Source of the DNA: Promethearchaeota archaeon
GTDB lineage: Archaea; Asgardarchaeota; Heimdallarchaeia; Hodarchaeales; Hodarchaeaceae
Assembly (NCBI GenBank): GCA_048938105.1
Contig: JBHLMN010000013.1
Location: 32,001-96,000, forward strand
DNA length: 64,000 bases
Direction of reading: 5' to 3'
Under the pieces are notes generated by a model, which saw only the letters and a program-made list of their open reading frames with translations, was not told the DNA's origin and did not search any database. Both the position numbers and the translations under genes were made by a program. Shown here in pieces: positions 15,299 through 45,944 of the stretch. The stretch's first letter is position 1, and every line of letters starts with the position of its first letter.

Positions 15299-15454
15299 TT
15301 ATACTGAGTTCTGTACAAGAAGAATTTCAAAGAATACATCATTTAATGCATCCTTGGGGAAACATTCGGAAAAACATGTGCAATATCTGCAATTTGGATA
15401 GAAATCCTTACAAATTCTTTCTTTAATTATTTTAGATTTTGCATATTTTTTCAT
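15299..15454 (-). CDS. Cys-rich mini-protein, copy A (51 aa; not in ORF track)
   Basis: Manual translation MKKYAKSKIIKERICKDFYPNCRYCTCFSECFPKDALNDVFFEILLVQNSV*; paralog of 30867 and 31192 ORFs; AGAAGGTG RBS-like motif upstream. Confidence 0.85.
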   Translation of the reverse strand: MKKYAKSKIIKERICKDFYPNCRYCTCFSECFPKDALNDVFFEILLVQNSV

Positions 15455-15584
15455 TTATTTCACACCTTCTTACTTATTTTTTCTTCTTATTTTACAAATA
15501 CTCTTCATAGAACATCTGACTTGTCTTTTGACCTTATCAGGTCAGGTAAAAATATAAAAAACAAGTTAATAAAATGTGAGTACA
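15455..15584 (-). promoter_or_regulatory. Conserved promoter plus structured leader of Cys-peptide copy A
   Basis: TGTACT-N5-TTTATTAA, palindrome TGACCT-GATA-AGGTCA (15529-15544); 69/72 nt identical to 30771-30842. Confidence 0.75.
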
Positions 15585-15783
15585 CAAATGAGATTTTTTT
15601 TTAAGATAATAACAATTTATTGATTCTCATAACATATAATCATAGTTTCATTAGTTATTTTAGGTGTACAATAATATCATACAATTTTTTCCGCTTTAGT
15701 GATATTAATGACACTTCATTATTGTCAAATGTATGAAAATTCGCAATTTCCTTATGCTTCAATGTTTATTATAGAAAATGTTA

Positions 15784-15843
15784 AATAATAATTAATTAAA
15801 AGTAATAATAATTAATTAAAAGTAATAATAGTTAATTAAAGGT
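15784..15843. repeat. Three tandem 20-bp repeats AATAATA(A/G)TTAATTAAA(A/G)GT, candidate operator array
   Basis: Units at 15784, 15804, 15824; ~100 nt upstream of 15942 ORF. Confidence 0.75.
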
Positions 15844-16671: not shown

Positions 16672-17709
16672 ATGACCAAATTACTGAAAGATCCACTTAA
16701 TCTGAAATTGTTGTTACTCCTTTGTGCTGGAGAAGGAGTAAGTATAAATGTCAGTGCTCTCTCTCAACAATTAAATAAACATAGAAATACAGTTAATGAG
16801 AGAATAAAACAGCTTTTGAAATATAGAATTATTGAAAGACCTCTGTATCCTTTAATATGGTTGTTTAAAGAATATCCTCTATTGGTTGTCTCAAAAGATA
16901 AATTTTATCGGGATGAAGCAACCAAAAATTCTATTGAAAGCGACCCACATATCTTCGCTGCATTTTTCTTTCAAGAAGAGGTCTATAATACATTAACAAT
17001 TCAATTCCATGAAGACCTTTTTTCTTATGAAACTTGGTGTGATAAGATTTTACAGGAGGAAAAAATCATCAAAGAAGAGGATCGTCATCCTCCTGATGCA
17101 TTACTTTTCAGTACAAAACGTATTTTAAAGTATGACCCTTCAGCACCTTTTAGAATTATTAATCTAGGTTTTAAAAAAGGAAATATTAAGAAGATTGGTG
17201 ATCTTGAGCTAGATTCCTTATCTTTAAGAATCTTAAGAATGGCTTTAAATGGAAAAGCAATAAGAACAAATGAGAATTTTTTAGCACGAGCCCTAAATGT
17301 TAATAGAAATACTATTATTAGGAGGATTCAAACCTTACTAAAAGAAAATATAATCGGAAATCCTATTTCAAGATTCCCAAGAGTTATAGTCCCTCCCGAT
17401 TTCATGCTTATATTCTCTTTATTTGAAATTAGGAAAAATTGTGCAATTGTTGAGAGATTCATTAGAAACGATCCTCATGTTCCCCTCCTGATTAAAGCTA
17501 ATGTTGGAAGATACAACTATTTTGTCGCAAATACTTTTAGAACCATCGAGGATCACTTAGAATGGCAAGAGAATTATAATCAAAGGTTCCAAAACTGTAT
17601 AGATGGAATCAAGAACACTTACCTTTCTCCTGCAATGACCTTTGCTATTGGGCAAAATTTTGTCTCACTTGAACTCATTAGAAAGAAATTACAATTATTA
17701 CAGGGATAA
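16672..17709 (+). CDS. Transcriptional regulator with two tandem HTH + Lrp/AsnC-like modules
   Basis: HTH1 NVSALSQQLNKHRNTVNERI, HTH2 NENFLARALNVNRNTIIRRI; full-length paralog at 44877. Confidence 0.7.
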   Translation: MTKLLKDPLNLKLLLLLCAGEGVSINVSALSQQLNKHRNTVNERIKQLLKYRIIERPLYPLIWLFKEYPLLVVSKDKFYRDEATKNSIESDPHIFAAFFFQEEVYNTLTIQFHEDLFSYETWCDKILQEEKIIKEEDRHPPDALLFSTKRILKYDPSAPFRIINLGFKKGNIKKIGDLELDSLSLRILRMALNGKAIRTNENFLARALNVNRNTIIRRIQTLLKENIIGNPISRFPRVIVPPDFMLIFSLFEIRKNCAIVERFIRNDPHVPLLIKANVGRYNYFVANTFRTIEDHLEWQENYNQRFQNCIDGIKNTYLSPAMTFAIGQNFVSLELIRKKLQLLQG

Positions 17710-17811: not shown

Positions 17812-18330
17812 TTAGTTTTCCTTTAATAATTTTGCGTTTTGCTCTCCTAATAGTGAAACTAAGAAGTCTATGATTTTATCTATCGCATTCAATACTTCGA
17901 ATGATATTTCAGAGCCAAAGTCAAGGTTTTTTGGTTTGATCCCTAATATTCGTATTAATACTCCTGATTGATTTTTCATGTAATCTACCAAGACTTTCAT
18001 CGGGATGAGATGAGTACTTAACGTTGCCTGTTTGTTTTCGAGATCTGATGGTTTAAAAAAGCCAATAGTACCAGCTGGGATCTCATTATTTCCAAATTGA
18101 ACAGCATCAATTATTAAACAATGAGTAACATTTTCTTTTAAAAGAACAGAAAGAAAATTTTCCAAAGATCCTCCTACATTGTATATTAGAAATTTATTAT
18201 TACGTTCCATTCGTAACTTATGATAAATCATTGGACCTAAACCATCATCTCCTCTCAAATCATTCCCAACACAAAAGATACTTAATTTGCCTTTTTTCGC
18301 AGCCTTGAGAAATGAAAAGAATTCCAGCAT
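17812..18330 (-). CDS. hycI: Hydrogenase maturation endopeptidase (HycI-like)
   Basis: VGNDLRGDDGLGP, LIIDAV, LSTHLIP; ATG at 18330 likely start. Confidence 0.9.
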   Translation of the reverse strand: MLEFFSFLKAAKKGKLSIFCVGNDLRGDDGLGPMIYHKLRMERNNKFLIYNVGGSLENFLSVLLKENVTHCLIIDAVQFGNNEIPAGTIGFFKPSDLENKQATLSTHLIPMKVLVDYMKNQSGVLIRILGIKPKNLDFGSEISFEVLNAIDKIIDFLVSLLGEQNAKLLKEN

Positions 18331-18813
18331 ATCAAACACATTATCTAAAATAACAATGATATTAAAAGACTTATTTTTCAGTGTCAATTGTAATCAATAC
18401 TATTGCTAAGAGTATTTTGCCCACTATAATGTGATTGACTAATTTCTTTAATCTAAGATTTAATATCAAGTTATTTTGCATACCATTAGCTATTGGAGTA
18501 TTTATTATGGAATAACTATCAGCTCTTAAGTAATTACTTATAAAGGGCAATATCTAAGAAAATAATATTACTTATAAGCTCATTAAAGATATACACTTAA
18601 TTTGTATGAATAATAAGATAAAAATAATGATTTAAGGTATTATCACAGAAATGTGTCAAAATTGTATATTTTAAGTCTATAAAAACTACAAAAACACCAT
18701 AATTATTTTTGAAACTGTTCAATATTTTTGTATAATTTATTCCAATTTCAATCGCGTAATATATGTTTTTTATATTTATTTTTGTTATTTTTTGACATAA
18801 ATTCCTTAATTTT

Positions 18814-18868
18814 TGTACACATGATTTATTATTTGCTTTTTCTTATAATTACTCGACCATTATTGGAA
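18814..18868 (+). promoter_or_regulatory. Promoter of malic enzyme with shared TGTACA-TATA-GACC architecture
   Basis: TGTACA 18814, TTTATTAT 18825, GACC 18855 (same offsets as three other promoters). Confidence 0.6.
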
Positions 18869-18896
18869 GTACTTCATAAATAAGAAGGAATAATTA

Positions 18897-20288
18897 ATGG
18901 CAAAAGAAAGTGTTGAAGACCTACTCAAAAAAGCTGATATTCCTAATCAAAAGGCTGAATTATGGCATCCATATTATCGAGGAAAGATCGAAGTTGTTTC
19001 AAAAGTAAAAATCGATAATTTTGACGATTTTGCTGTTTGGTATACACCCGGAGTGGCAAGACCGTGCAAAATCATAGAAAAAGAAATGAAAGTTGCAAAA
19101 GCACAGAATTGGTCTTATAACTCGGTGTATGACTTGACGAATAAGTGGAACAACGTTGCAGTTGTATCTGATGGCAGTAGAGTCCTGGGATTAGGTGATA
19201 TTGGTCCTGAGGCTGCTATGCCCGTGATGGAGGGTAAAGCGTTATTATTTAAATATCTTGGAGGCGTAGATGCGTTTCCAATTTGTTTAAATTGTCATAA
19301 TGCCAATAAAATAATTACAACGGTAAAATGTATTCAGCCTAGCTTTGGTGGAATCAATTTAGAAGATATTTCTCAACCAAAATGCTTCAAAATACTCGAT
19401 GCTCTTCGTAGTGATAAGGATGTTCATATTCCTGTTTGGCATGATGATCAGCAAGGGACAGCAACCATTATTGTAGCAGGCATGTTTAACGCCTTAAATT
19501 ATCTCGATAAGAAATTAAATGAGGTAATTATTTCTATGGTTGGGGCAGGAGCTGCTAATATGGCAGCTGCTAGAGTTATGATAAGTTCTGGAGTCCCTAA
19601 AAAGAATATCATCATGATAGATTCTAAAGGAATTCTACATCCCGAAAGAAAGGATATTGAAGTAGTTAAGAAAAAATATAGTTTAAAATGGGATATTTGT
19701 CTCAATTCTAATGGTGAAGGAAGAGTAGGAGATATGTTTGATGGAATGAAAGACACAGATATGGTAATTGCGGCTAGTAAACCTGGTCCTGGAGTTATAA
19801 AACCAGAACATATTCAAGCAATGGCAGACGATCCAATTGTATTTGCTTGTGCCAACCCAGTTCCTGAGATATGGCCTTGGGAGGCAAAAGAGGCTGGAGC
19901 TGTGATAGTAGCCACTGGTCGATCTGATTTCCCAAACCAAGTGAATAACAGCCTTGGTTTTCCTGGAATCTTTCGAGGAACACTTGATGTGATGGCAATT
20001 ACTATTTCAGATGAAATGTGCATTGCTGCAGCTAAGGAATTGGCAAAAACAGCTCAAGATAAAGGATTAGAACCAAACTACATTATACCCTCAATGGATG
20101 ATTGGGAAGTATTTCCTCGAGAAGCAGTAGCAGTAGGTCAGCAAGCAATCAAAGAAGGTATTGCTAGACTTAAACTAACTCGTCAAGAAGCATATGAACA
20201 CGCTGAAATCCTTATTAGACGAGCAAGAGAGCAAACTCATTCATTGATGGATTTAGGATATATTTTGAAAGCTCCCTCAATTTATTAG
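18897..20288 (+). CDS. NAD(P)-dependent malic enzyme
   Basis: [55 protein letters not shown]. Confidence 0.95.
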
Positions 20289-20338
20289 AAGTATTAATAT
20301 CAAATTTCGCTTGAAAAAAAAAGGAAAATGTAAAATTT

Positions 20339-20737
20339 ATGGCAGAAATAAATGCGGAAGAAACACCTAAAGGTTTTCCACTTAAATTAAATGGGTTAAA
20401 AACTTGCTTACCTTCAAATGGAATAGACACCTCCTCACCTCTAGCTGAATCCTTCGAACGTTGTTCTTATTTTGTTATTGCAGATTTAAACCGTCAGGAA
20501 ATCACAAGTTTTGTGAATTATGTTCAAACATTTCCAAGAGGTGAGAGTATTCAAACAGCGCAAATGATAATCGATCAACAAGTCGAAACAGTAATTGTAC
20601 CTGAAATCGATTCCAGCACTTTAAATATCCTTCAAAAAGCAGGAATAAAAATCTTTTTAGGTATTGATGGAACCATTCAAGAAAATATCGATTTATTTAG
20701 TCAGGGACGATTAGTTGAGATAAAAATCTCCAATTGA
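20339..20737 (+). CDS. NifB/NifX-family (dinitrogenase FeMo-cofactor-binding-like) metallocluster protein
   Basis: F.RC.YFVI, AQMII...VETVI, L.KAGIKIF pattern. Confidence 0.75.
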   Translation: MAEINAEETPKGFPLKLNGLKTCLPSNGIDTSSPLAESFERCSYFVIADLNRQEITSFVNYVQTFPRGESIQTAQMIIDQQVETVIVPEIDSSTLNILQKAGIKIFLGIDGTIQENIDLFSQGRLVEIKISN

Positions 20738-20874
20738 ATTTCTCAAACAAATCTAGGAGGTGTTTGAAGGAAAGAAAAGTGAGATAACTTTATATTAATG
20801 TTCCTTAGAATAAAATTTCAAACAAAGAAGCAATTTTTCTTCTACTTTTTCAAGCTATTTATGGTGTTTAATCC

Positions 20875-21222
20875 TTGGAATTCTTAAACGAGGTTCTACC
20901 AGCATTAATAGTTGCAATTATTGCAGTATTATGTTTGTATGGCTTCGCTAAATGGTTAAATATTGGGAGGTTCCAGACAACGAGATTAAAACAACAACTA
21001 TATCAAAGCGGAGAGACCATACTTCCTCGAAAGCGGCGTTACTTGGATCAAACATTTATTTGGATATCATACTTTTCTACAGCTCATGTTATATCATTTA
21101 TGTTTGCTACATTGTTGATTCTTTCTCTAGGTATAAGAATTAACATATTTTATCCTTTTGTGTATTTTGTTATAACTTCATATGCAATTTTCATGTTAGC
21201 AATAAAAACACCAGAGTCATAA
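20875..21222 (+). CDS. Small 3-TM membrane subunit of hydrogenase complex (NuoA-like)
   Basis: TM - loop with YQSGE (cf. NuoA YECG) - two TMs; first gene of operon. Confidence 0.6.
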   Translation: MEFLNEVLPALIVAIIAVLCLYGFAKWLNIGRFQTTRLKQQLYQSGETILPRKRRYLDQTFIWISYFSTAHVISFMFATLLILSLGIRINIFYPFVYFVITSYAIFMLAIKTPES

Positions 21223-21241
21223 ATTAAAGAGGTGTTATTAT

Positions 21242-21679
21242 CTGATAAATAGGAAAAAACTTGCAGTAAAAGCCTTAACAAACAGTCCATGGGTGGGACA
21301 TCTTAATTGTGGCTCCTGTAATGGATGTGACATTGAAGCATTGTCATTATTTGTTCCTCGATATGATGTTGAAAGATTTGGCATTATTTTAGAAGGATCA
21401 CCTAGACATTGCGACATCCTATTGGCAACAGGTGCAGTTACCAACCAATACATCCTAAGATTGAAACGTATTTATGAGCAAATGCCCGATCCAAAATTCG
21501 TGATTGCAATTGGTAATTGTGCAAGTACTGGGGGTGTTTACCAAGAAACCTATAACACACTAGATGGGGTAGATAAGGTGGTACCTGTTGATATCTATAT
21601 ACCAGGTTGCCCACCTCGTCCTGAAGCTATTGTTGATGGTGTTATCAAATTAATTAACAAAATTCGGCTTGATTTTTAA
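21242..21679 (+). CDS. Group 4 [NiFe]-hydrogenase small subunit (NuoB/HycG/EchC-like)
   Basis: SPWVGHLNCGSCNGCDIE, SPRHCD, IGNCASTGG, PGCPPRPE; conserved SPW lies upstream of the called GTG (21293), so start inferred at CTG 21242. Confidence 0.9.
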   Translation: MINRKKLAVKALTNSPWVGHLNCGSCNGCDIEALSLFVPRYDVERFGIILEGSPRHCDILLATGAVTNQYILRLKRIYEQMPDPKFVIAIGNCASTGGVYQETYNTLDGVDKVVPVDIYIPGCPPRPEAIVDGVIKLINKIRLDF

Positions 21680-21712
21680 GATATAAGTATTAATTATTTG
21701 GTGATTTTAGAA

Positions 21713-23467
21713 ATGGAAGAAATTAAGCCTGAAACACTAGAGGATGTCGTAAAAAACCTAAATCTTTCAGTTCGTGAATCATCTGGGTTTCCACTGGATT
21801 TATATGTTACAGTTCAACCAGAAAGTCTAATCAAAGTAATAAAACAGCTAAAAGAAAAATATAATGTTACACATCTTTTAACAATCATTACTCAAGACCA
21901 AACGGATAGTTATAACTTACTTTATCCGTTCTCCATAAATTTAAGGAATCAGAAAAGTGGGAAATTAATTTTGGATCTCAAGCTTGATAAAAATGATCCA
22001 AAAATAAGTTCAATTGTAACAGAAATACCTGGAGCTATTTTATATGAGCGAGAAGTCTATGATATGATGGGTATCACGTTTTTAAACCATCCTGGTCTCC
22101 AGCGTTTATTAACACCCGATTCTTTGCCAAATTACATTTACCCCTTAAGGAAAGATATTACTTTTACGGAAATTCGTGAGAGATTAGCTGAATCAAGGAA
22201 AGAAAGAGAAGCTGAAAAAGAGCTAAAGGAATATATAAAGCGAGAGTATGTTGATTTTACTTCTGAAAGATCTGATTACTCAATATCTGTAGGGCCTCAA
22301 CATCCCTCTTTGGAAGAACCAATTCGTTTTATTTTTCATGTCAAAGGGGAGACTGTTAAAGCCATTGATTTGCGTTTAGGATTTTCTCATCGAGGGATAG
22401 AAAAGGCATTTGAAAGTCGTACATGGATGCAAAACCTCTATTTAGCTGAAAGAATATGTGGGATATGCAGTGATGCTCATCAATTATGTTATGTCCAAGC
22501 TGTAGAGAAATGTGCTGAATTAACTGAAGTAATACCAGAACGAGCACAGTATATTCGAGTAATAATGGCTGAACTTGAACGTATACACTCACATTTATTA
22601 TGGTATGGAATTCTAGCCCACGATACTGGCTTTGATACAATGTTTCAATACACTTGGCGAGATAGAGAAATTGTGATGGATATTCTGGAGGAGATCTCTG
22701 GGAACCGTGTTAATTATGCTATGCATACCATTGGCGGGGTTCGCCGAGACATTGATTCAGAAGTGACAAAAGTCAAAATTATTCCAAAATTAAAAAATCT
22801 TCGAAAAAGGGTTGAAAAGCATAAAAAAATGATAATCCAGCAAAGAAGTTTTATTTCTCGTCTAAAAGGCATAGCAATATTAACAAGAAAAGATGCAGCA
22901 CGTTTTTGTGTTGTGGGGCCAACTGCTCGAGCTAGTGGAATAAATATTGATGTTCGAAAAAATGATCCTTATGGTGCTTATGATCAGCTCTCGTTCAATA
23001 TTCCTCTTTTAACTGAAGGTGATATTTTAAGTGGATTAATAAATCGCTTAGATGAAAGTCTTATCTCTATAGATCTAGTAATTGATGCACTCAAAGCCTT
23101 GCCTCCAGGTAATTTAACAATTAAAGTACCTCGACAAATTCCTGTAGGAGAAGGAATGAGTTGTGTTGAAGCACCAAGGGGAGAGAATGTGCATTATATT
23201 CGATCGAATGGTAAGAATAATCCAGAACGTCATAAAGTTCGTGCTCCAACCCTCGCCAATATGCCAAGTTTGGTATATCGATTAATTGGTGTACAAGTAG
23301 CAGACATTCCTCCTGTCATCCGAGTCATCGATCCATGCATCGGTTGTATGGATAGAGTCACTTTCATAGACTCAGGAAAAGGAAAAAAGCTTGATTTATC
23401 AGGAAATCATTTAATAAGTCGGGCAAATCGTGCTTATCGTTTGGGTACTAAAATTCTTGACTTTTAA
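21713..23467 (+). CDS. Group 4 [NiFe]-hydrogenase large subunit, NuoC+NuoD-like fusion
   Basis: NuoC-like YEREVYDMMGI.F..HP; L1 ERICGICSDAH and L2 DPCIGCMDR retain all four Ni-Fe Cys; C-terminal tail after L2. Confidence 0.93.
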   Translation: MEEIKPETLEDVVKNLNLSVRESSGFPLDLYVTVQPESLIKVIKQLKEKYNVTHLLTIITQDQTDSYNLLYPFSINLRNQKSGKLILDLKLDKNDPKISSIVTEIPGAILYEREVYDMMGITFLNHPGLQRLLTPDSLPNYIYPLRKDITFTEIRERLAESRKEREAEKELKEYIKREYVDFTSERSDYSISVGPQHPSLEEPIRFIFHVKGETVKAIDLRLGFSHRGIEKAFESRTWMQNLYLAERICGICSDAHQLCYVQAVEKCAELTEVIPERAQYIRVIMAELERIHSHLLWYGILAHDTGFDTMFQYTWRDREIVMDILEEISGNRVNYAMHTIGGVRRDIDSEVTKVKIIPKLKNLRKRVEKHKKMIIQQRSFISRLKGIAILTRKDAARFCVVGPTARASGINIDVRKNDPYGAYDQLSFNIPLLTEGDILSGLINRLDESLISIDLVIDALKALPPGNLTIKVPRQIPVGEGMSCVEAPRGENVHYIRSNGKNNPERHKVRAPTLANMPSLVYRLIGVQVADIPPVIRVIDPCIGCMDRVTFIDSGKGKKLDLSGNHLISRANRAYRLGTKILDF

Positions 23468-23482
23468 TGGAGAAATAAATGA

Positions 23483-24622
23483 ATGCCATCTATTAATTCT
23501 GTATTAAGACCTCTGATTTTTTTCATGATTTATTTCCTAATTATAGCCAGTTTATTCTTTTTTTTTCAAGAATCTCCTGAGATGATTATTCTCTTGAAGT
23601 ATTTTCTCTTCCCAGGTATTCTTTTTATTTTTACTGGGGCTTTATTTTATAATTGGTTTGAACGGAAAATTTACGCTCGGATGCAAAACCGAAAAGGCCC
23701 CCGATTAATTCAACCTGTTTACGATGTTCTTAAACTACTCGTTAAAGAAGATATTACACCAAATGGTGTTGATACGCCTGAATTCAATGTAATTCCCCCA
23801 ATTCAATTACTTTTAGCACTCTTATTGGCCTTCTTTTTACCAATATATATAGCAGAAGGATTAATCTCTTTTGATGGTGATTTGCTTTTTTTGCTATTTT
23901 TATTGGCAGTGTTATCAGGATCAATCTTTTTGCTTGGATGGGCTAGTAACAATCCATATGGTTTACTTGGAGGATCTAGAGCTGCAATTGCAGAATTATC
24001 ACTCGAAATTCCGTTAACCATAGCTTTTATTGCCCCTGCTATCTTAGCAGGGTCACTCCGTATCTCAAATATCGTTCAGAGCGAATTCAATCTAATTGAT
24101 ATTCCCTTGAATGTAATCTTTCAAATGAATGATTTTTCTATTCATCATCTGTTGTATTTAATTCCTCTTTCTCTTCTCTTCTATATTGCAGTATTGTCTG
24201 CAAATGCAGTCCTAGAAAAAGTTCCATTCGATCCAGCTCACGCAGAAGTTGAAATTGTTGGTGGTTGGACAGTAGAACTTAGTGGGAAAAAGCTTCTTTA
24301 CATTCGCCTTGCAAATTTAGTAACGGAATTTGCAATTGCAGGGATTATAGCAACTATTTTCTTAGGTGGTCCAGGATTTAGTCCATTAAACAAAATGTTC
24401 GATGGGATTCTAATTGTTGGACGATGGGATGTATTTTATTATATTATAAACTTTTTAACCTTTATTATTAAAACTACACTATGTATTTTTTTTATTACGA
24501 TTAGCCGTACAGTTCTATCCCGCCTTCGAATTGACCAATTAGTTCAATATTTTTGGCGGTATTATTTACCTGTTTCTTTCTTTGCATTAATAGTGATAAT
24601 CTATCTAGCAGGAGTAATTTAA
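23483..24622 (+). CDS. NuoH/HycD-like membrane anchor subunit
   Basis: ERKIYARMQNRKGP, DVLKLLVKE, PFD..AEVEIVGG, SRLRIDQ. Confidence 0.92.
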   Translation: MPSINSVLRPLIFFMIYFLIIASLFFFFQESPEMIILLKYFLFPGILFIFTGALFYNWFERKIYARMQNRKGPRLIQPVYDVLKLLVKEDITPNGVDTPEFNVIPPIQLLLALLLAFFLPIYIAEGLISFDGDLLFLLFLLAVLSGSIFLLGWASNNPYGLLGGSRAAIAELSLEIPLTIAFIAPAILAGSLRISNIVQSEFNLIDIPLNVIFQMNDFSIHHLLYLIPLSLLFYIAVLSANAVLEKVPFDPAHAEVEIVGGWTVELSGKKLLYIRLANLVTEFAIAGIIATIFLGGPGFSPLNKMFDGILIVGRWDVFYYIINFLTFIIKTTLCIFFITISRTVLSRLRIDQLVQYFWRYYLPVSFFALIVIIYLAGVI

Positions 24623-24624
24623 AG

Positions 24625-25083
24625 ATGGTTAAAATACCTGATCTTTTTCCTGTGTTAAGTGAAGTTACTCGGAATTTAATAAATAAAACAGTTACAGTCG
24701 AATTTCCTTTTGAGAATGTAAAAGTTCCAGATGGATATAGAGGGGCACCAGAAGTCAATCCAAAGCTATGTATTGTTTGTAAAACTTGTGAAAAAATATG
24801 CCCAACACATTGCATTGAGATTATCCCTGTGAATCCCAGTGAAATTGCAGATTATTCTCAGGAGAAAGGAATTCCCTTTTGCTTTTCAATTAACCTTTCA
24901 CAATGTATGTTTTGTCAGGAATGTGAGAAATCTTGTCCAGTAGGTAAGAAAGGAGAATCTGCTATAAACCTTAATTCAAGTCGATGGTTAATGGCTAATT
25001 ATAAAATTGCAGATACAACTGAAAAAAAACTTGTTTATCAGAGACCTAAGAGAAAAAAGAAAATTAACGCTCAAGGAAGTTAA
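24625..25083 (+). CDS. NuoI/HycF-like 2[4Fe-4S] subunit
   Basis: YRG.P, CIVCKTCEKICP, CMFCQECEKSCP; ATG at 24625. Confidence 0.9.
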   Translation: MVKIPDLFPVLSEVTRNLINKTVTVEFPFENVKVPDGYRGAPEVNPKLCIVCKTCEKICPTHCIEIIPVNPSEIADYSQEKGIPFCFSINLSQCMFCQECEKSCPVGKKGESAINLNSSRWLMANYKIADTTEKKLVYQRPKRKKKINAQGS

Positions 25084-25088
25084 ATCCA

Positions 25089-25373
25089 ATGGCATCGGTC
25101 GAAGTAGTAATCTTAACTATATTTACAATAGCAATGGCGGCTGCAGCGCTTGAGGTGGAAAATATAACTCGTTCTATCCTTTGTTTAGCGCTTTCGTCTA
25201 TTGGAGTTGGTTCTATATTCTTTTTTGTTGGTGCTAGTTATGCTGCCGTTTTTGAATTCGTTCTTTATGCTGGTGTTTTAATAATTTTGTTTATTGTTGC
25301 AGCTAGTTTAACTGAAATCACCGAAAAAGAGACTATTGGAGAGGATCTCTTGATAAAGGAGATAAAATCATGA
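25089..25373 (+). CDS. NuoJ N-terminal-like membrane subunit
   Basis: 3 TMs, GASYAAVFEFVLYAGV. Confidence 0.75.
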   Translation: MASVEVVILTIFTIAMAAAALEVENITRSILCLALSSIGVGSIFFFVGASYAAVFEFVLYAGVLIILFIVAASLTEITEKETIGEDLLIKEIKS

Positions 25374-25642
25374 ATAATAAGGAAGTATTAGGAAGAATCG
25401 GATTTGCTATCATTGGCTTTATTTTGTTAGTTCTTATTGTTGATGCACAAGATAGTGGAGCTTGGGCAACCTTACAAACTGTGAAACCAAATTTAGCAAA
25501 CGAAAGGAGTTTGGGGTTATTATGGACCACTCTAGCAACCTCAACTATAATTCAAGGTTTTATGCTTTATGCAGCCCTTTTGGGTTCAAATTTACAGTTC
25601 TCGCCACCAACAAAAGAGAGAGAAAAAGAGGAGGAGTCTTAA
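25370..25642 (+). CDS. Small membrane subunit, probable NuoJ C-terminal half
   Basis: 2 TMs with SLGLLLW (cf. NuoJ 'lG..Lf'); overlaps neighbours. Confidence 0.55.
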   Translation: MNNKEVLGRIGFAIIGFILLVLIVDAQDSGAWATLQTVKPNLANERSLGLLWTTLATSTIIQGFMLYAALLGSNLQFSPPTKEREKEEES

Positions 25643-25974
25643 TGGCGTTTTCTGTAGATTCTTTCACTGATTTTGAAATTTTACTAGCTTTATCGTTTAT
25701 CATGCTCTTAATTGGTATTTATGGCCTAATTACAAAACGTTTAGCTATTAAAACAATAATGGCTTTAGAAATCCTTGTTACTGCACCTAATATAGCATTT
25801 ATTGCTTTTGGTTTTACTCAAAATACAAATATAGATCCACAGACACAGGCTTTTGTAATTATATCCTTATCAGTTGGGGCTGCCGTTATTGGTCTGGCTT
25901 TAGCTTTTCTTCGCAATTTGTACAAACACTTCGAAACAACTGAAGTGGACGCTTTTACAACACTTAAAGGATGA
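25642..25974 (+). CDS. NuoK/MrpC-like membrane subunit
   Basis: IGIYGL..KR.AIK.IMALEI, QAFVI..VGAA; ATG at 25642 after GGAGG. Confidence 0.85.
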   Translation: MAFSVDSFTDFEILLALSFIMLLIGIYGLITKRLAIKTIMALEILVTAPNIAFIAFGFTQNTNIDPQTQAFVIISLSVGAAVIGLALAFLRNLYKHFETTEVDAFTTLKG

Positions 25975-25975
25975 G

Positions 25976-27946
25976 GTGGCTAAAAATATGTCCAGCTGGC
26001 GAATAACAACTTTTGAAAACCTTATTGATGTTTCTCTTCAACCTTGGTTTTTAGTTTTCGCTATTCCCATTGTTGGAGCATTTTGTTCACCAATTGTAGG
26101 TAGATTTAATTCAACTCTACGTAATTTTTTTTCAATTGCAACAATCGGGATTTCAACCCTACTTGCAGGATATCTGGTTGCACTTGGAACTGCAGAAGAA
26201 CATATAATATTATTCGTTCCAACAATTATTAACAATTCAACTTTTGATTTTTTCTGTAATTCAATAAATCTTGACGCTTTAGGTGTCTTTATCGCTCTAA
26301 TTGCATCAGGATTGGGTTTCTTAATAGCAATTTTTTCATTAGAATATATGAAGGAAGACACAGCTCAAGGAAGATATTATTTTTTCCTCCAGCTTTTTAT
26401 TGGTGGAATGGTTCTTCTTGTTCTTGCTGGGGATTTGATATTCCTGTACTTTGGCTGGAAAATGGTAGGAGTGTGTAGTTATTTCCTAATTGGTCACTGG
26501 TTTCATAAACCTGAACCACAAGGTTCTTTATGTGCGAAGTCAGGAATGAAGGCCTTTCTTATGACACTTGTAGGTGATATTGCTCTTTTGATTGCACTTG
26601 GAATCCTATGGTTTGAATTAGACACAATTAATATTAAAATCATAACTCAAGCGTTTAATTCAGGAGTAACATCTGGACTCCAAACATTCGTTGCTTTACT
26701 CATTCTTCTTGGGGCAATTAGTAAATCAGCGCAATTTCCATTCATTACATGGTTAAGTAGTCCAAGAGATATTAATATTGATGCCATGCAGGGCCCTACA
26801 ACCGTCAGTGCACTCATACATGCCGCAACTATGGTAAAGGCGGGAGTTTATCTTATTTCAAGGTTTTATATGGTTTTTGCGCCAGTAAACATAACATTTT
26901 TTATCATGATCATTTCACTTATCGCTGCGATTACTGCATTGATAACTGCAGCTTCAGCTTTAGCATCCATTGATATTAAGCGTGTATTGGCTTATTCAAC
27001 TGTTAGTCAACTAGCCTATATGTTTATGGGCCTCTCTATTGGCTTTTTAGCTTATATTGAGAAACCAATAATTAGCATCGAAGGTTTTATGGGGACTCAG
27101 TTCCATCTATTGTCACATGCAATATTCAAAGCTCTTCTCTTCCTTTCAGCAGGAGCAATTATACATTCTTTAAATGAAGAAAGGAATATTAAATGTATGG
27201 GTGGATTAAAAGATGAATTACCAATTATTCATTGGACAACATTAATAGGAATATGTGCTTTAGCTGGTGTTCCATTCTTCTTTAACGGTGGATATAGTAA
27301 AGAGGCGATATTAGGCTCAATAGTTAACTTCGTTTTTAGTGGTGCAAAATTAGCTCTTTTTGGATGGATAATTTATGGGGCTGGTATGATAACAGTAATT
27401 TTAACATCGTTATACGCTTTTCGACTCTTTTTTCTAATTTTTTATGGCAAAAAGTCAGAAAGTTTGAAAGTAAACAAACCTGGCTTTATTATGCGGGGAG
27501 TGACATCCTTTTTAGCAATTCTTGTTGTTATAACTGGATTTATTGGGCCTATTCTTTTAAATACCCATTTTAGACCAATGTTTAAGAATTCAGAATATCA
27601 TTCACCATTAATATACATTCCTGATCCTTTACATCAGCCATTAGCTTTTATCAACATGGTTATTGTAATTGGATTGGTTATTATCGGATTTGGTCTTAGT
27701 TATCACATTTACTACAAGGGTCCAAGAACGATTATGCCTACTGTTCAGAAGAACTGGATTCTTAACGCTTTCCATACCATAATTATAGAGGGATTTTATC
27801 TAGATACGATTTACAACGAGCTCATAGACTTATTCATGTTTTTAAACTGGAAACTTCGAAAGTTACAGACTGGGGATCTCAATTTTAACATGGCAGGAGT
27901 AGGTATGATAGCTATTCTAATAATCATAACTTTATTGTTATTTTAA
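25976..27946 (+). CDS. NuoL/MrpA-like antiporter subunit
   Basis: SKSAQFP, AMQGPTTVSALIHAATMVKAGVYL, KRVLAYSTVSQLAYM, HAIFKALLFL. Confidence 0.92.
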   Translation: MAKNMSSWRITTFENLIDVSLQPWFLVFAIPIVGAFCSPIVGRFNSTLRNFFSIATIGISTLLAGYLVALGTAEEHIILFVPTIINNSTFDFFCNSINLDALGVFIALIASGLGFLIAIFSLEYMKEDTAQGRYYFFLQLFIGGMVLLVLAGDLIFLYFGWKMVGVCSYFLIGHWFHKPEPQGSLCAKSGMKAFLMTLVGDIALLIALGILWFELDTINIKIITQAFNSGVTSGLQTFVALLILLGAISKSAQFPFITWLSSPRDINIDAMQGPTTVSALIHAATMVKAGVYLISRFYMVFAPVNITFFIMIISLIAAITALITAASALASIDIKRVLAYSTVSQLAYMFMGLSIGFLAYIEKPIISIEGFMGTQFHLLSHAIFKALLFLSAGAIIHSLNEERNIKCMGGLKDELPIIHWTTLIGICALAGVPFFFNGGYSKEAILGSIVNFVFSGAKLALFGWIIYGAGMITVILTSLYAFRLFFLIFYGKKSESLKVNKPGFIMRGVTSFLAILVVITGFIGPILLNTHFRPMFKNSEYHSPLIYIPDPLHQPLAFINMVIVIGLVIIGFGLSYHIYYKGPRTIMPTVQKNWILNAFHTIIIEGFYLDTIYNELIDLFMFLNWKLRKLQTGDLNFNMAGVGMIAILIIITLLLF

Positions 27947-27958
27947 GGTGGTACAATC

Positions 27959-29491
27959 ATGATTGTGATCTTTGGACTAAATATTACATTAATTACTTTC
28001 GTTATTATCCCCCTTTTTTTTTCATTTTTTCTTATACTTTTAGAAAAGTTATTTTCATCCTCACGGTTAAAAAAGAATTTTATTCATATAATAGCATTAA
28101 TTGGGGCATTATTTGATTTACTTCTTGCTTTTCTTTTCTGTTCCGAGATCCTGAAGACTGGAAAAGAATTTTTTATAGATACTTCTTTCCTCGTTTTAAA
28201 AACTGATATCACATCTCTCTTTTTTATACTGATTTTTACAACAATTCATTTTACTGTATCCATTTATTGTGTCAATTTTATGGATCAATTCGATGACCTT
28301 GCTATTTTTTATGCGTTATTATTTGCATTAGTAACAGGTCTTAATTTGATAGTTATGGCTTCTGATTTTTTCACGCTTTTCGTAGCTTATGAGGGAATGG
28401 CATTATGTGCTTATTCCATGGTTGGATTTTACCGTAATCTAGAATCATCTGAAGCAGGATTTAAGTATCTGATGATGAGCTCAACTGGAAGCCTCTTATT
28501 ATTATTCGGCTTAGCCTTACTGTATGGAGTAGTAGGAAGCCTTAATTTTGCCTACTTGTCAACTGCCAACTTAGATAACAATTTGATGTTATCTTTAGCG
28601 ATTATCTTGATGGTTCTTGGATTTGGAATAACAGCTTCGATGTTCTTCTTAAATACTTGGCTTCCAGATGCTCATCCTGCCGCACCACCACCTGCTAGTG
28701 TCATTCTATCAGGAATTGTAGTTATCGCAGGGACATATGGATTATTAAGAACTTTCACTCTTCTTATAATTCCTTTAAACATCAATTCAGAACTATCATG
28801 GTCTAATCTGTTTATACTTATCGGTATTTTTACATCATTACAAGGGAATCTCTTTGTACTCATTCAATTCAAGAGAACTGATTCGCAGGCAAGAAATCTT
28901 AAACGGATATTAGCTTTTTCAACAATTTCACATATGGGCTACCTATTAACTGGAATAGGTACTGCTAATATCATGGGTATAAGCGGAGTTCTACTGCATG
29001 CTCTCAATCATGCAATTGCAAAAGGAATTATGTTTATGATTGCAGGTTATCTTATTTTTTCTGGAGGTTCGCATTGTCTCGATCATTATAAGGGATTAGG
29101 CCGTCAAGATCCAGTGATTGGAACCTGTTTAGTTATTGGTTTGTTTTCATTGGCCTCAATACCTCTTACTGGTGGTTTCTGGTCGAAATTACAGCTAATA
29201 CTTGGTCTTTTTGAAAATGGTTATCCCTTCGGAATATTCGCAGGTGTAAGTATGCTTGGATTAACTTTTTTCGCTGCAATAGGTTACCTTTGGATAATCA
29301 AATATATTGTTATGGATCATTCAGATATGGATTTAGAATATATTCATAATTTTAAGAAGATGAATCTAAGAAGGGGCGGATTTATGAAGTTAGCGATTAT
29401 CATATTGACATTAATTGTGGTTATTCTCGGATTATTACCAGGTCCATTCATAAATTTAACATTACAGGCTGCACATTATCTATTTGGATAA
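27959..29491 (+). CDS. NuoM/N / MrpD-like antiporter subunit
   Basis: SEAGFKY, WLPDAHPAAP, KRILAFSTISHMGY, NHAIAKG, P.TGGFWSK. Confidence 0.9.
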   Translation: MIVIFGLNITLITFVIIPLFFSFFLILLEKLFSSSRLKKNFIHIIALIGALFDLLLAFLFCSEILKTGKEFFIDTSFLVLKTDITSLFFILIFTTIHFTVSIYCVNFMDQFDDLAIFYALLFALVTGLNLIVMASDFFTLFVAYEGMALCAYSMVGFYRNLESSEAGFKYLMMSSTGSLLLLFGLALLYGVVGSLNFAYLSTANLDNNLMLSLAIILMVLGFGITASMFFLNTWLPDAHPAAPPPASVILSGIVVIAGTYGLLRTFTLLIIPLNINSELSWSNLFILIGIFTSLQGNLFVLIQFKRTDSQARNLKRILAFSTISHMGYLLTGIGTANIMGISGVLLHALNHAIAKGIMFMIAGYLIFSGGSHCLDHYKGLGRQDPVIGTCLVIGLFSLASIPLTGGFWSKLQLILGLFENGYPFGIFAGVSMLGLTFFAAIGYLWIIKYIVMDHSDMDLEYIHNFKKMNLRRGGFMKLAIIILTLIVVILGLLPGPFINLTLQAAHYLFG

Positions 29492-29702
29492 CTTCTAATA
29501 TTTCCACATTTATCAAATAAGATATTTTTAAAATATAAACGTGTAATAAATGAGAATTTTATATTTAAAGAAAATATAATTTTGATAATATTTTTCCTTC
29601 ATATATGAAACATTGATTTACATGAAAAGGGCAGAAATCAATACTAATCATATGTCTTAAAATTCAGTGGGGACGAAATCTTCCAAGAAATAAGATTTAT
29701 TC

Positions 29703-29757
29703 TGTACATATATTTTATTAACTCATTATTGGTATTTATAATCGACCCTTGTTGGTC
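29703..29757 (+). promoter_or_regulatory. Promoter with shared TGTACA-TATA-GACC architecture
   Basis: TGTACA 29703, TTTATTAA 29714, GACC-CTTGTT-GGTC 29744-29757. Confidence 0.65.
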
Positions 29758-29785
29758 AAGCTAAATCTAATTTGGGATAATACAG

Positions 29786-29932
29786 ATGAAAAGTATTAGC
29801 GAACAGAAAGAAAATTTACGATCATCCACAGATAATAAACGAATTTCAAAAGATATTAGACTTAGAAATCAAGATCATGAAACTAAATGGTTGCCAAAAA
29901 GAGGTAACCATTACGTTATAATTGAATGGTGA
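29786..29932 (+). CDS. Small ORF (48 aa; not in ORF track)
   Basis: MKSISEQKENLRSSTDNKRISKDIRLRNQDHETKWLPKRGNHYVIIEW*; first ATG downstream of the conserved promoter. Confidence 0.45.
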   Translation: MKSISEQKENLRSSTDNKRISKDIRLRNQDHETKWLPKRGNHYVIIEW

Positions 29933-29997: not shown

Positions 29998-30210
29998 TTG
30001 GCACTTAAAAACGATTTAGTAACTTCACATAATTTAATACTCAGTTTTATTCTATTATCAAGCATTTATATGATTGTATTTGACTGGAGAATTATTATTT
30101 TCGCCATTATTATAGTCTCAATATTTGGAGGCTATTTGGCTTTTATCTCTGTAGGATTCATGGATTTAGATTATAGAACAAAAAATGAAAAAAAGAATTT
30201 GGAAGAATGA
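29998..30210 (+). CDS. Small 2-TM hypothetical protein
   Basis: GAGGA upstream, two hydrophobic stretches, ATGA overlap with next ORF. Confidence 0.55.
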   Translation: MALKNDLVTSHNLILSFILLSSIYMIVFDWRIIIFAIIIVSIFGGYLAFISVGFMDLDYRTKNEKKNLEE

Positions 30211-30446
30211 AAATGACAATAAAAGAAGGAATATACCCATTCTCTCAAACAACATTAAGAAAAGATCGTGTTAGTTCATTAGAACTAAATAGTGTGAGAT
30301 CTAAAGCCATATTAGAGCAAAATTACATGAGTTTAAAAGGTTTAGACGACGAACTTTTTAAAACTCTTTCAGAGAAATCGTTTAAAGAAGCTAAAGAAGT
30401 CACGTATGAATTAATTGAAGAAGATAATGAAAATCCTTATCTATAA
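30207..30446 (+). CDS. Small hypothetical protein
   Basis: 79-aa ORF coupled to upstream ORF by ATGA overlap. Confidence 0.55.
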   Translation: MKMTIKEGIYPFSQTTLRKDRVSSLELNSVRSKAILEQNYMSLKGLDDELFKTLSEKSFKEAKEVTYELIEEDNENPYL

Positions 30447-30735
30447 GGTATTTTCTTGATCTTTATCTTAACCAAAGACAAGATACAGAGAATCAATCGT
30501 TAAACTAAAGGAACCAATCAATCTAGGGAAATAATCGTCTAAGTTCAAAATGTCAATTAATACGTATAAAACTGGCATCTATGATATCAATCATCTTATT
30601 CATTCTTTCAAAAGAGACATTTCATTTCTATCTTATTAATCAATATTAATGTACATAAAGTACCTATCTTAATCTTGTAGTTATTTGTTTTTTAATTCTA
30701 TAATTTAGATTTTTCTCACATAATCGTTTTTTTTT

Positions 30736-30866
30736 TGTACATACGTTTTATAAATTCTTGATTAATATAATTACCTGACCTGAAAAGGTCAAAAAACAAG
30801 TCAGATGTTCTATGAAGAGTATCTGTAAAATAAGAAGAAAAATTGATCAAGGAGGATTTGAAATAA
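30736..30866 (+). promoter_or_regulatory. Conserved promoter plus structured leader of Cys-peptide copy B
   Basis: TGTACA 30736, TTTATAAA 30747, TGACCT-GAAA-AGGTCA 30776-30791, hairpin CAGATGTTCT-ATGA-AGAGTATCTG, GGAGG RBS. Confidence 0.75.
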
Positions 30867-31079
30867 ATGATGAGCCTACCGCGATCTAAAGAAGTTAAAG
30901 AAAAAATTTGTAAGGATTTCTTTCCAAACTGCACATATTGCACTTGCTATAGCATGTGCTTTCCCACAAATGAAACAGAAGATTTATCATCTCAAGCTCT
31001 CTTAGAACAAGAAAAAGCATTTAGAGAAGCACAATTATCATCAGAAACCCTAGTTGGTTTGAAAGAATCAACTACTTAA
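30867..31079 (+). CDS. Cys-rich mini-protein, copy B (70 aa)
   Basis: KEKICKDFFPNCTYCTCYSMCFP core shared with two paralogs; GGAGG RBS. Confidence 0.85.
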   Translation: MMSLPRSKEVKEKICKDFFPNCTYCTCYSMCFPTNETEDLSSQALLEQEKAFREAQLSSETLVGLKESTT

Positions 31080-31191
31080 CTAAATAGCTAAGTACTTCCA
31101 GATATATAATTAAACAAAATCACAAGCTAGAAGTTCTATTAAGACTATCAACAAAATAAGAAGAAAATAAGAGCAAGAAGGTATGAAATAA

Positions 31192-31389
31192 ATGATGGAT
31201 CCAAAAGCAAAAGAAAAAATTTGTAAAGATTTCTATCCAAATTGCAGATATTGCACTTGCTTCAGTATGTGCTTCCCTAATTGTCTAGCTCAAGATGTAT
31301 CATCTCAAGCCCTTTTAAGACAAGAAAATAGGAGAATAAAGGAATCACATATAACGCCCAGGGTTTCTTTAGTACTAAATAATTCTTAG
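31192..31389 (+). CDS. Cys-rich mini-protein, copy C (65 aa)
   Basis: KEKICKDFYPNCRYCTCFSMCFP core; degenerate copy of the leader upstream. Confidence 0.85.
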   Translation: MMDPKAKEKICKDFYPNCRYCTCFSMCFPNCLAQDVSSQALLRQENRRIKESHITPRVSLVLNNS

Positions 31390-43367: not shown

Positions 43368-44576
43368 CTAAGATTCATCCTCTAAAGCGTCTAAGACTCT
43401 CTGTTGAGCAATTTCCTTGGCTATTATTCGTGGAATAAGGCCAGAATCGATTGTTCTTTCACTAATTAATTTAGCGTTCTTCTTGATTTTTGACTCAATT
43501 AATACAAAAGCTTCTGCTGCATCCATTTTTCTATATTCGGCAAAAGAGCCAATAATCCCTCCAGCATTGACTAGAATATCAGGGAGGATGATTACACCTT
43601 TTTCAAACAATTTTCTTTCAGCGATAGTGGTTGAACTATTATTAGCTCCTTCAACAATGAGCTTTGTTTTAAGTTGAGTAATTGTATCTTCATTTATTAC
43701 ACAATCATACGCGCAGGGAATAAATACATCACATTCTATTTCATAGATCTCGTCTCTAGGTAAGATCATACCCTCTCTCGAACGTTTTAATGAACGTTCT
43801 TTATTCATGGCATGTGCAAATTTTCTAATCTTTTTAATATCTATACCATCTGAATTATAGAGAGTTCCCCAGTTATCATTTACAGCGATTATATTCGCTC
43901 CTTTGCTATTCAAATATTTTGCCGTTCCATAACCTACCTTACCAAAACCTTGGATTACTACGCGTGTCTCCGATAAACAATTAGGGCATTGAATTGAATC
44001 ATGTAAAACTTGAAGACTTGTTTCAAGAGCCACTCCAATTCCGAATCCAGTCATATCATTCTTATAAGATATTCCTCCAAGGCTAGTTGGTTTTCCAGTG
44101 GCTCCTAGTAGATCACCAACGGTTTCTACAAAAGCTGCAATTTCTTTTTCACCAACATTTATATCTGGACCAGCTATATATTTATTAGGAATAAAAGGTG
44201 CTATTTTATCAGCAAAAGCTTTGATATACTTGATTGTATCAATTTCAAACGGATCTGCACGAATACCAGCTTGAGCTCCCCCGAACGGAATTTCTGCCAG
44301 AGCGCATTTCCAAGTCATTAATCTAGCAAGTTTAAAAATCCCTAAAGGAGTAATTGTAGGAGAAATTCTAATTCCCCCTTTCCCTGGCCCTAATGTAGTG
44401 TTATCAATTATTAAATACCCTTGCATTTGTATATCAGGGTCATAAACTTGAACCACTCTTTCAGGCCCCCACTTATCTAGAAAAGCTGAAATATTAACAT
44501 GATTTAAGGCTTCAAGAATATTTTCACTGCTTAGTACTGTTTTTTCATCCTGAGAAGACATTCTTGACATATCCAT
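43368..44576 (-). CDS. Glu/Leu/Phe/Val dehydrogenase paralog with catalytic Lys replaced (probable pseudo-enzyme)
   Basis: GPGKGGIR, MTWK, QGFGKVG, EGAN, NAGG present, but GGAKGG reads GGAQAG; start likely ATG 44576. Confidence 0.8.
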   Translation of the reverse strand: MDMSRMSSQDEKTVLSSENILEALNHVNISAFLDKWGPERVVQVYDPDIQMQGYLIIDNTTLGPGKGGIRISPTITPLGIFKLARLMTWKCALAEIPFGGAQAGIRADPFEIDTIKYIKAFADKIAPFIPNKYIAGPDINVGEKEIAAFVETVGDLLGATGKPTSLGGISYKNDMTGFGIGVALETSLQVLHDSIQCPNCLSETRVVIQGFGKVGYGTAKYLNSKGANIIAVNDNWGTLYNSDGIDIKKIRKFAHAMNKERSLKRSREGMILPRDEIYEIECDVFIPCAYDCVINEDTITQLKTKLIVEGANNSSTTIAERKLFEKGVIILPDILVNAGGIIGSFAEYRKMDAAEAFVLIESKIKKNAKLISERTIDSGLIPRIIAKEIAQQRVLDALEDES

Positions 44577-44876
44577 AAAATATAAGCCATCTAGATACAA
44601 GAATAATGAAAAAACAGAAATATAAAACATTGATGTACAAAATTAAGAAAAAAACACTAATAACTGAGAACAAAAAAAGAAATAATGTATTAAAAACGAC
44701 ATTTTCTTTTTATTTTTGTATTCAATGTGTTATAATATTATAACAGAAAAAATACTTCTATTCGTAATTTTGACATATTTGATATTATAAAAAGAAATTT
44801 GATAACAAAATGATTACATTTATATTTATCAATTTTTACATAAGGAGTTGAAAAAATTAGGATAGTATTTTATTTC

Positions 44877-45944
44877 ATGAAAAAGATTCTTGAAGATAAT
44901 TTGAACTTAAAAATTTTAGAACTAATATGTGCAGGTGAGGGGGTCTCTGTCAATACTACTGAACTATCAAAAGTTCTAGGTAAGCATCGAAATACCATAA
45001 AAAATAATATTGCTAAGCTATTCGAACACGAAATCATAGAAAAGCCCTTTTATCCTTTCTCTTATCTTTTTAAGGAATGGCCTCTTCTTGTCATTGAAAA
45101 AGCAAATTTTCAAAGAAACTTGAAAACAAATGTTTTTATTGAAAAGGATCCAGTTATATGGGCAGCTTTTTTTGTTAAGGAAAATGAATACAACACATTT
45201 CTAATTGAATTTCATAAGGATTTATATTCTTATCAAAATTGGAAAGAAAGTATAATCAAAGAGGCAAAGATTACTCTTAAGGAGGAAACCTATCCATCTG
45301 AGGCAATTTTTTTAACAATGAGAAATTTAATTAAGTATGAGCCAACAATCGCAGTGCAAATATTAGAAACTAATTATAAAAACCATCATCATCAAGAGCT
45401 AAATGGCTTAAAGCTTAGTGATTTCAGGCTTGAACTTATTAAACTTCTTTTAACTGGGAAATGTATTAGAACTAATGAGTATCACATTAGTGATATGCTT
45501 GATGTCCATCGTCGCACTGTTAAACGTCGAATTGAAAAATTATTAGAACATAGAATAATTGATAGTCCAGTTTGTTGCTTCCCAAGAGTTTGGGTGCCAC
45601 CAAAATATTTTCTGGTCTTTTCTTTATTTGAAATAAAGAATAAAAATGAGTTGGTATTGAGAACATTAAGGAATGATCCCCATGTTCCAATTCTTTTCAG
45701 AGCTGTTGTAGATAAATTTAATCTTGCTCTCTTTAGCAATTTTTATAAAATGGAAGATTTTTTGGAATGGGCGGAAGAATATGATCAAAGATTTCCTGGA
45801 TGCATTGGAGCAGTCAGGAATACATTTCTTTCTCCCTCCATGACTTTCTCTATTGCCCATAATTATGTTACTCTCACATTTATTCAAAATATTGCTAATC
45901 GTTTACGAGGTAAGGTATTTGTTGAAATGATGAAAGAAAGCTAA
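44877..45944 (+). CDS. Transcriptional regulator with two tandem HTH + Lrp/AsnC-like modules (paralog of 16672)
   Basis: LNLK.L.L.CAGEGVS.N, KHRNT, FKE.PLLV, IRTNE, FPRV.VPP, RNDPHVP, LSP.MTF shared; divergent from pseudo-GDH/HdrA operon. Confidence 0.7.
   Translation: MKKILEDNLNLKILELICAGEGVSVNTTELSKVLGKHRNTIKNNIAKLFEHEIIEKPFYPFSYLFKEWPLLVIEKANFQRNLKTNVFIEKDPVIWAAFFVKENEYNTFLIEFHKDLYSYQNWKESIIKEAKITLKEETYPSEAIFLTMRNLIKYEPTIAVQILETNYKNHHHQELNGLKLSDFRLELIKLLLTGKCIRTNEYHISDMLDVHRRTVKRRIEKLLEHRIIDSPVCCFPRVWVPPKYFLVFSLFEIKNKNELVLRTLRNDPHVPILFRAVVDKFNLALFSNFYKMEDFLEWAEEYDQRFPGCIGAVRNTFLSPSMTFSIAHNYVTLTFIQNIANRLRGKVFVEMMKES

Follow-up and report, generated by a model that had tools for sequence, protein, structure and literature searches.

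Putative promoter and operator signals of a small regulon linked to a hydrogenase cluster in an Asgard archaeal genus

The archaeal regulator Ptr2 belongs to the Lrp family. Its sites and those of TFB-RF1 lie directly upstream of BRE/TATA and recruit TBP or TFB (PMC4158304). TrmB-type sites upstream of BRE/TATA activate as well, and TrmB itself occupies start sites of two kinds, one with the full palindrome and one with half of it (PMC4158304). For Asgard archaea, no described operator, regulon or leader RNA was found in the literature searched, the coverage of which was incomplete.

The window analysed here is a stretch of 64,000 nt from a genome of the Hodarchaeales (Promethearchaeota archaeon). 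This genome contains three related leaders, all of them inside the window, one of which belongs to the gene of a small Cys-rich peptide, peptide A (70 aa, 30867..31079 (+)). An earlier note had interpreted the leader of A as an undescribed two-hairpin cis-regulatory RNA or switch, with a protein operator plus hairpin as the fallback. Its identity of 69/72 nt between the leaders of A (30771-30842(+)) and of a second peptide, B (15549-15478(-)), was obtained again on re-measurement, with the differences at the positions claimed, 30784 (loop 1), 30795 (linker) and 30823 (G-C to G-U), and the two hairpins form in both 72-mers (z = -4.2 and -2.9 against shuffles). The identity and both hairpins are real, but they do not represent a conserved two-hairpin RNA: hairpin 2 is stable in 7/21 homologous leaders and the layout stands before unrelated genes. 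The fallback fits the comparative evidence, and the sequences are best read as a previously undescribed set of promoter and operator signals that would govern a small regulon linked to a hydrogenase. The motif was found only in a single Asgard genus, and a mechanism of this type is already known.

Promoter layout at peptide A and before other genes

Positions are given relative to +1, taken to be the first base of GACC, a G that lies at 30777 in A. The promoter of A comprises a proximal TGTACA box at -41 (30736..30741 (+)), just 5' of the BRE position, a TATA box at -31 to -23 (30746..30754 (+)), which has the archaeal spacing if +1 is 30777, and the palindrome Y|GACC-N6-GGTC-A (30776..30791 (+)), which coincides with hairpin 1 and is predicted to be both the initiator and an operator overlapping the start site. 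Further upstream lies a distal box (30637..30655 (+)), a degenerate TGTACA-N7-TGTACA with its strong half at -127, which is conserved in the peptide promoters. TGTAC stands at exactly -41 from the G in 28/28 sites, with TATA at -31/-30, and these sites had been located through protein homologues or through nothing but the palindrome, with no spacing imposed. The distal box figured in no search pattern, and its TGTAC is exact at -126 to -128 in 21/21 peptide promoters, which were gathered with their leaders through protein homology, and recognisable in most others; searched alone through the genome, it shows no enrichment (52 matches versus 48 in the control).

In 39/39 sites the initiator consists of a pyrimidine (T or C) at -1 followed by a G at +1, a count of moderate weight, since the search imposed the pattern on 11 of them. 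In a profile of 38 sites, positions -30 to -23 relative to the G form a T-rich/ATA box, a result that is partly circular because +1 was itself placed by spacing; the archaeal TATA box is centred about 26/27 nt upstream of the start (PMC4158304). The adenines at -34/-33 of a purine-rich BRE are not a regular feature of these sites (A at -34 in 50%, C at -33 in 66%), and such a weak BRE would be expected for an activator-dependent promoter. A genome-wide TATA profile yielded no calibration of the start site. Transcription probably starts at or beside G 30777, and since the TATA box and the pyrimidine-purine initiator lie at archaeal positions, hairpin 1 would begin at this start site. Behind the palindrome, the leader measures 40 to 102 nt and has gained and lost bases freely, and the conserved unit reaches 41 and 127 nt upstream of the leader. 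Peptide A is preceded by a Shine-Dalgarno-like (SD) sequence (30850..30857 (+)), homologues having a purine/GG motif 5-16 nt before the start.

The whole layout (distal box at -127, TGTAC at -41, TATA at -31/-30, Y|GACC-N5/6-GGTC) is common to four promoters of the window and to 39 sites or more across the genus and related contigs, which precede genes of five kinds. In the promoter of B (15566..15683 (-)), TATA lies at 15574-15566, the proximal box at 15584-15579 and the distal box at 15683-15665. The third promoter (29604..29758 (+)), with its distal box at 29604-29622, proximal box at 29703, TATA at 29713 and a full palindrome at 29743-29758 (G at 29744), precedes two small ORFs (29998-30210 and 30207-30446 (+)) and is kept in eight other contigs. 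The fourth (18716..18869 (+)), with its distal box at 18716-18734, proximal box at 18814, TATA at 18824 and GACC at 18855, precedes a malic enzyme gene and, behind it, a cluster for a group 4 [NiFe]-hydrogenase of the complex I-like type (18897..29491 (+)), assigned by NCBIfam models and containing a fused C/D subunit with both CxxC Ni-binding motifs. Malic enzyme gene and cluster together are the probable regulated unit of the fourth promoter and are presumably co-transcribed. The second arm here is GGAA, which cannot pair, so that a hairpin is impossible; the promoter was found by models not trained on it and has orthologues in four genomes (G003, G009, G012 and G020).

A matrix trained only on peptide promoters from other genomes, the second arm being left out, ranked the four window sites first in the 5.85 Mb genome (29.9-45.2 bits, the next match scoring 17.4 and the control maximum 16.4). 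Within the genus, a strict pattern matched 25 times in 21 genomes, against 6 matches in the control; 61 other genomes gave 5 matches, against 20 in the control. Its further matches precede genes for an Fe-S protein, a membrane protein, malic enzyme and OsmC-like proteins, the last so called on the basis of their sequence. Between gene classes, the boxes are 81-93% identical, whereas the upstream DNA between them is 34-45% identical, with 32% expected by chance.

Some further elements accompany these promoters. A hydrogenase maturation protease gene (17812-18387 (-)) is divergent from the malic enzyme promoter. Two short ORFs behind palindromes, 29786-29932 (+) and 30812-30889 (+), both start with MKSI and have the stretch ATGAAGAGTAT in common, which recurs in both leader types at differing distances, the ATG being lost in some homologues. 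An AT-rich short tandem repeat of about 23 nt (15782-15838) lies between promoter B and a 237-aa ORF.

The palindrome as operator or as RNA hairpin

The best reading, to which a probability of about 0.62 is assigned, is that the palindrome acts as an operator overlapping the transcription start in a small regulon, both the start site and the binding being predicted from sequence. A dimeric or pseudo-dimeric protein would bind GACC/GGTC across the start and block RNA polymerase, and promoters with the first half-site only, as at the malic enzyme/hydrogenase cluster, would be held more loosely. The TGTACA boxes would be separate protein sites, the proximal one lying where archaeal activators recruit TBP/TFB; a neighbouring tandem Lrp-fold protein most likely binds at least one box type, and hairpin 2 would be an optional stem-loop in the 5' UTR, confined to one lineage. 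When peptide promoters are compared with small-ORF promoters, the palindrome arms are 97% identical and the spacer 21%. GACC is kept in 6/6 malic-enzyme-type promoters where the second arm is gone, which indicates that it is needed as a sequence and not as a stem. An RNA that starts at the G would offer no partner to the A following GGTC, yet 9/9 small-ORF promoters retain this A.

The alternative that survives best supposes that GACC is a fixed initiator or initially transcribed sequence and that GGTC closes a 5'-terminal RNA hairpin against 5' decay, with no repressor at the palindrome and regulation through the TGTACA boxes only. It is favoured by the folding of the whole palindrome as a 5' hairpin (-3.5 to -7.6 kcal/mol) in all 21 peptide leaders, with a pairing probability of 0.98 in A, beginning exactly at the predicted +1, and by the failure, in 6/29 sites, of the pair that would need the -1 base. 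Changes in the hairpin core also agree with it: G-U wobbles arose in three events and C-G was replaced once by U-A through a double change, whereas pairing was broken once. The covariation score over 29 sites exceeded 500/500 shuffles, which rests on one double change and one clade; under transitions only, however, half of single changes would keep pairing regardless. Against it, the arms show almost no sequence turnover, the innermost pair is broken in 8/29 sites, no loop is preferred between gene classes, and the spacer is frozen while leader length is free. The spacer measures 6 throughout, with the exception of a single lineage in which it is 5 at two unrelated sites whose spacer letters differ, a concerted change. 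As a replacement for the operator this alternative is unlikely, although the two readings are compatible and can both hold.

It is distinctly improbable that the whole layout is instead an alternative basal apparatus, with a TFB paralogue reading TGTAC as BRE and GACC as initiator and no Lrp-type regulator. The base-exact spacing of TGTAC, TATA and GACC is what a basal complex imposes, and a TFB paralogue is reported to drive a gene set in Sulfolobus (10.64898/2026.09.06.749720). On the other hand, the genome has four such sites only, all in one island, TGTAC and TATA are five free bases apart, a second TGTACA box lies 86 nt further upstream, and the recurrent neighbour is an Lrp-fold protein.

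Hairpin 2 (30802..30825 (+)) appears to be a lineage-limited and dispensable 5' UTR stem-loop. Across the 21 leaders it is stable in 7 (-5.5 to -13.4 kcal/mol), collapsed in 11 (-1.9 kcal/mol or weaker) and deleted in 3, which still keep promoter, palindrome, SD and gene, and this pattern points to an optional stem-loop of part of the family. Among the stable copies, the changes in B, L047 and L054 all preserve pairing, and G013 has one double change on manual reading, missed by the automatic alignment. In A, a fold joining the 5' arm of hairpin 2 to the SD region competes with that hairpin, whose probability is about 0.3; occlusion of the SD across the family is not above that of shuffled leaders (mean z -0.2, 6/18 positive, z = 0.5 in A). 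Under the two-hairpin model, 71-74% of cells are paired across homologues, so the structure is not kept, and its covariation score was matched in 41/500 shuffles. The alternative CUGAC/GUCAG pairing claimed earlier is present as sequence, with an ensemble probability of 0.000 and 2/5 pairs broken in 9/18 homologues, and no conserved alternative fold or expression platform was found across the homologous leaders. The Rfam search proposed for the leader gave no match at the gathering score and none at a useful E-value. The proposed covariance model, run on 82 genomes, recovered only already known promoters, its weak extra matches lacking promoter boxes and the one inspected sitting in a coding region.

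A conserved two-hairpin cis-regulatory RNA, riboswitch-like or protein-bound, whose fold switch (for example hairpin 2 against anti-Shine-Dalgarno pairing) would control peptide translation, is very improbable even with a tract 89-96% identical among A-type orthologues, as hairpin 2 is missing from 14/21 leaders. The earlier note had named a lack of covariation among homologues and recent gene conversion as grounds for abandoning this claim; covariation is thin, and the identity of A and B behaves largely as a conversion tract. Other readings of the leader were rejected: an upstream ORF from the loop 2 AUG, which is absent in L047, C, L045 and G013, differs in length elsewhere and has no SD; an anti-SD switch, with pairing no stronger than in shuffled leaders; and SECIS, IRE and C/D-box elements, whose position and loop sequences do not fit and on which Rfam is silent. 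Two matches to the leader on contig C27 turned out to be ends of dehydrogenase genes.

Probable leader conversion and the peptide family

The claim that the leader is more conserved than the genes behind it holds for A against B, whose ORFs are 77% identical in the Cys core and 64% in the N-terminal codons, but not in general. Against its own orthologues, which were assigned by gene order, B (leader 15478..15549 (-), palindrome 15544-15529) is 70-82% identical upstream, 71-96% at the SD, 81-95% in the Cys core and only 69% in the tract, where it is 94-96% identical to A. At informative sites, B sides with A in 19/19 cases inside the tract and 19/103 outside when the G003 orthologue is used, and in 18/18 and 31/99 with that of G012; a permutation test independent of the boundaries first drawn gave p = 5e-5 and 1.5e-4. 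A tree of the flanks joined B to its orthologues with a support of 100/100, and the tract tree placed it with the A group, with weak support (82/79). The B tract was most likely copied from an A-type sequence in the pattern of gene conversion, from which the 69/72 identity would mainly come; independent decay or loss of constraint in both B orthologues is a weaker alternative. Some selection probably also acts on the tract, because A-type orthologues are so alike there (89-96%). This case, if read correctly, is a warning that a stretch in which paralogous leaders resemble each other more closely than the genes do can be a conversion tract. In G012, one B orthologue (L028 1383-1640) has promoter and palindrome intact, has lost its ATG and carries a Tyr in place of one invariant Cys, and is probably a young pseudogene.

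The degenerate copy reported before peptide C (65 aa, 31192..31389 (+)) exists as a related stretch, a truncated C-type leader (31122..31191 (+)) matching C-type orthologous leaders at 64/73 and the A leader at 59/73; the palindrome and the promoter boxes are absent from it. Peptide C is probably transcribed by read-through from A.

Peptides A, B (51 aa, 15299..15454 (-)) and C belong to a family in which four Cys, C-x6-C-x2-C-x5-C, are invariant in 25/25 members; synonymous changes occur among homologues of A. The spacing is that of the iron-sulfur cluster loop motif of Endonuclease III/MutY, and binding of a cofactor by the peptides is a guess. The family had no Pfam match at E <= 1 and no PDB sequence match, and its structure model is poor (pLDDT 67). 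Of 20 other genomes of the genus, 8 had a member of the family, one of these a marginal hit; the 39 genomes searched from other genera had none. The genome has four such genes, the fourth lying on contig C50 (27873-27690 (-)) without a leader or promoter boxes; its product (L015, 61 aa) keeps only the four invariant Cys, and peptides of this type also occur in G002 and G014. In G003, G012 and G014 (L010, L011/L131, L114), the stretch 300-400 nt downstream of the B orthologues contains another small ORF rich in Cys (62 aa, CPVC..IC.CS.P). Cultured Hodarchaeales degrade peptides with NiFe hydrogenases (10.1101/2025.02.26.640444), a physiology with which an amino-acid or redox signal for the regulon would fit.

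The candidate regulator and comparison with known systems

The candidate regulator, TF1 (345 aa, 16672..17709 (+)), is a tandem Lrp/AsnC-fold protein with two HTH matches, and TF2 (44877-45944) is its paralogue. In the predicted model of TF1 (pLDDT 91), a winged HTH followed by a ferredoxin-like effector domain occurs twice in the chain, and a structure search matched Lrp/AsnC structures. TF1 or TF2 adjoins peptide or other motif promoters in divergent, upstream and downstream positions. Among the other genomes, the motif is carried by 9/9 that encode an orthologue of TF1 at 60% identity or more, and by 0/7 without the family. Co-occurrence of the TF1 family and the motif (11/13 versus 0/7, Fisher p = 5e-4) was counted in genomes that are incomplete and related, and is partly linkage, because regulator and motif share one gene island; kinship also inflates it.

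Divergent from TF2, before a glutamate-dehydrogenase-like ORF (43368-44630), a stretch at 44595-44639 (-) has TGTACA and TATA at the same spacing and no GACC, and both boxes are kept in G003, G008 and G011; the true start of this ORF is probably downstream of 44630. This arrangement suggests that Lrp-fold proteins read TGTACA, and because GACC/GGTC and TGTACA do not resemble each other, a second protein may be needed for GACC/GGTC. A conventional single Lrp regulator (11093-11653 (+)), 4 kb from B, is another candidate binder. Directly 5' of TF1 lies the 237-aa ORF (15942-16655 (+)), which accompanies TF1 in G003 and G014; a language-model comparison likened it to proteins of Asgard archaea and, with lower scores, to longin-type domains of NPR2, folliculin and DENN, which is a lead only.

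A more ambitious proposal is a closed sensing circuit, undescribed in archaea, in which the tandem Lrp protein would read the boxes, the four-Cys peptides would carry a metal or an Fe-S cluster and act back on that protein, and bases 1 to 14 would double as operator and 5' RNA hairpin, all tuning the complex I-like hydrogenase; this is speculative and rather improbable. If the preferred reading of the palindrome as an operator is true, it would provide a base-exact cis-regulatory code together with a candidate regulator expressible in E. coli, and the targets would include a complex I-like group 4 hydrogenase. Asgard archaea are the archaea closest to eukaryotes. This type of hydrogenase has been discussed for the energy metabolism of the eukaryote ancestor (10.1101/2024.07.04.601786).

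Riboswitches and other Rfam cis-regulatory RNAs resemble the leader as structured sequences of about 90 nt before an SD-led gene; they differ in that the leader has no Rfam match, its fold is not conserved among homologues and it has no conserved expression platform. The loop of EndoIII/MutY shares with the peptides C-x6-C-x2-C-x5-C and a Pro before the second-to-last spacer residue, whereas the peptides are free-standing, 45-70 aa long, carry aromatic instead of basic residues and match no family profile.

H-x-Y-x-R is the catalytic motif of siroheme decarboxylases, the group that contains NirDL, the best fold match of TF1 (PDB 4ch7, 4czc). Like TF1, NirDL is a fused tandem of Lrp/AsnC units (PMC4835899), with only 11-12% identity between the two. 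TF1 does not look like a siroheme decarboxylase of the NirDL/AhbAB kind: it matched no AhbA/AhbB model, and H-x-Y-x-R is absent in 74/74 homologues.

Closer parallels are found among regulators of the core promoter. Like the sites of Ptr2 and TFB-RF1, the proximal box lies directly 5' of BRE/TATA and keeps a fixed distance to it; the differences are that the candidate protein has its two Lrp units in a single chain and that a second box stands 86 nt upstream in the opposite orientation. The sites of TrmB and Tgr, TACT-N3-AGTA and TATCAC-N5-GTGATA, differ in sequence, and this locus departs from TrmB systems in having a neighbour of the Lrp/AsnC and not the TrmB fold and two unlike box types per promoter. 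An inverted repeat of fixed spacing was found at the inferred start before unrelated genes, as is typical of TrmB, MDR1 and Phr. With these and with TrmBL1/Tgr of Thermococcales it shares an inverted repeat 3' of BRE/TATA over the start site, and with TrmB also a full palindrome at one promoter and the first half only at another (PMC4158304).
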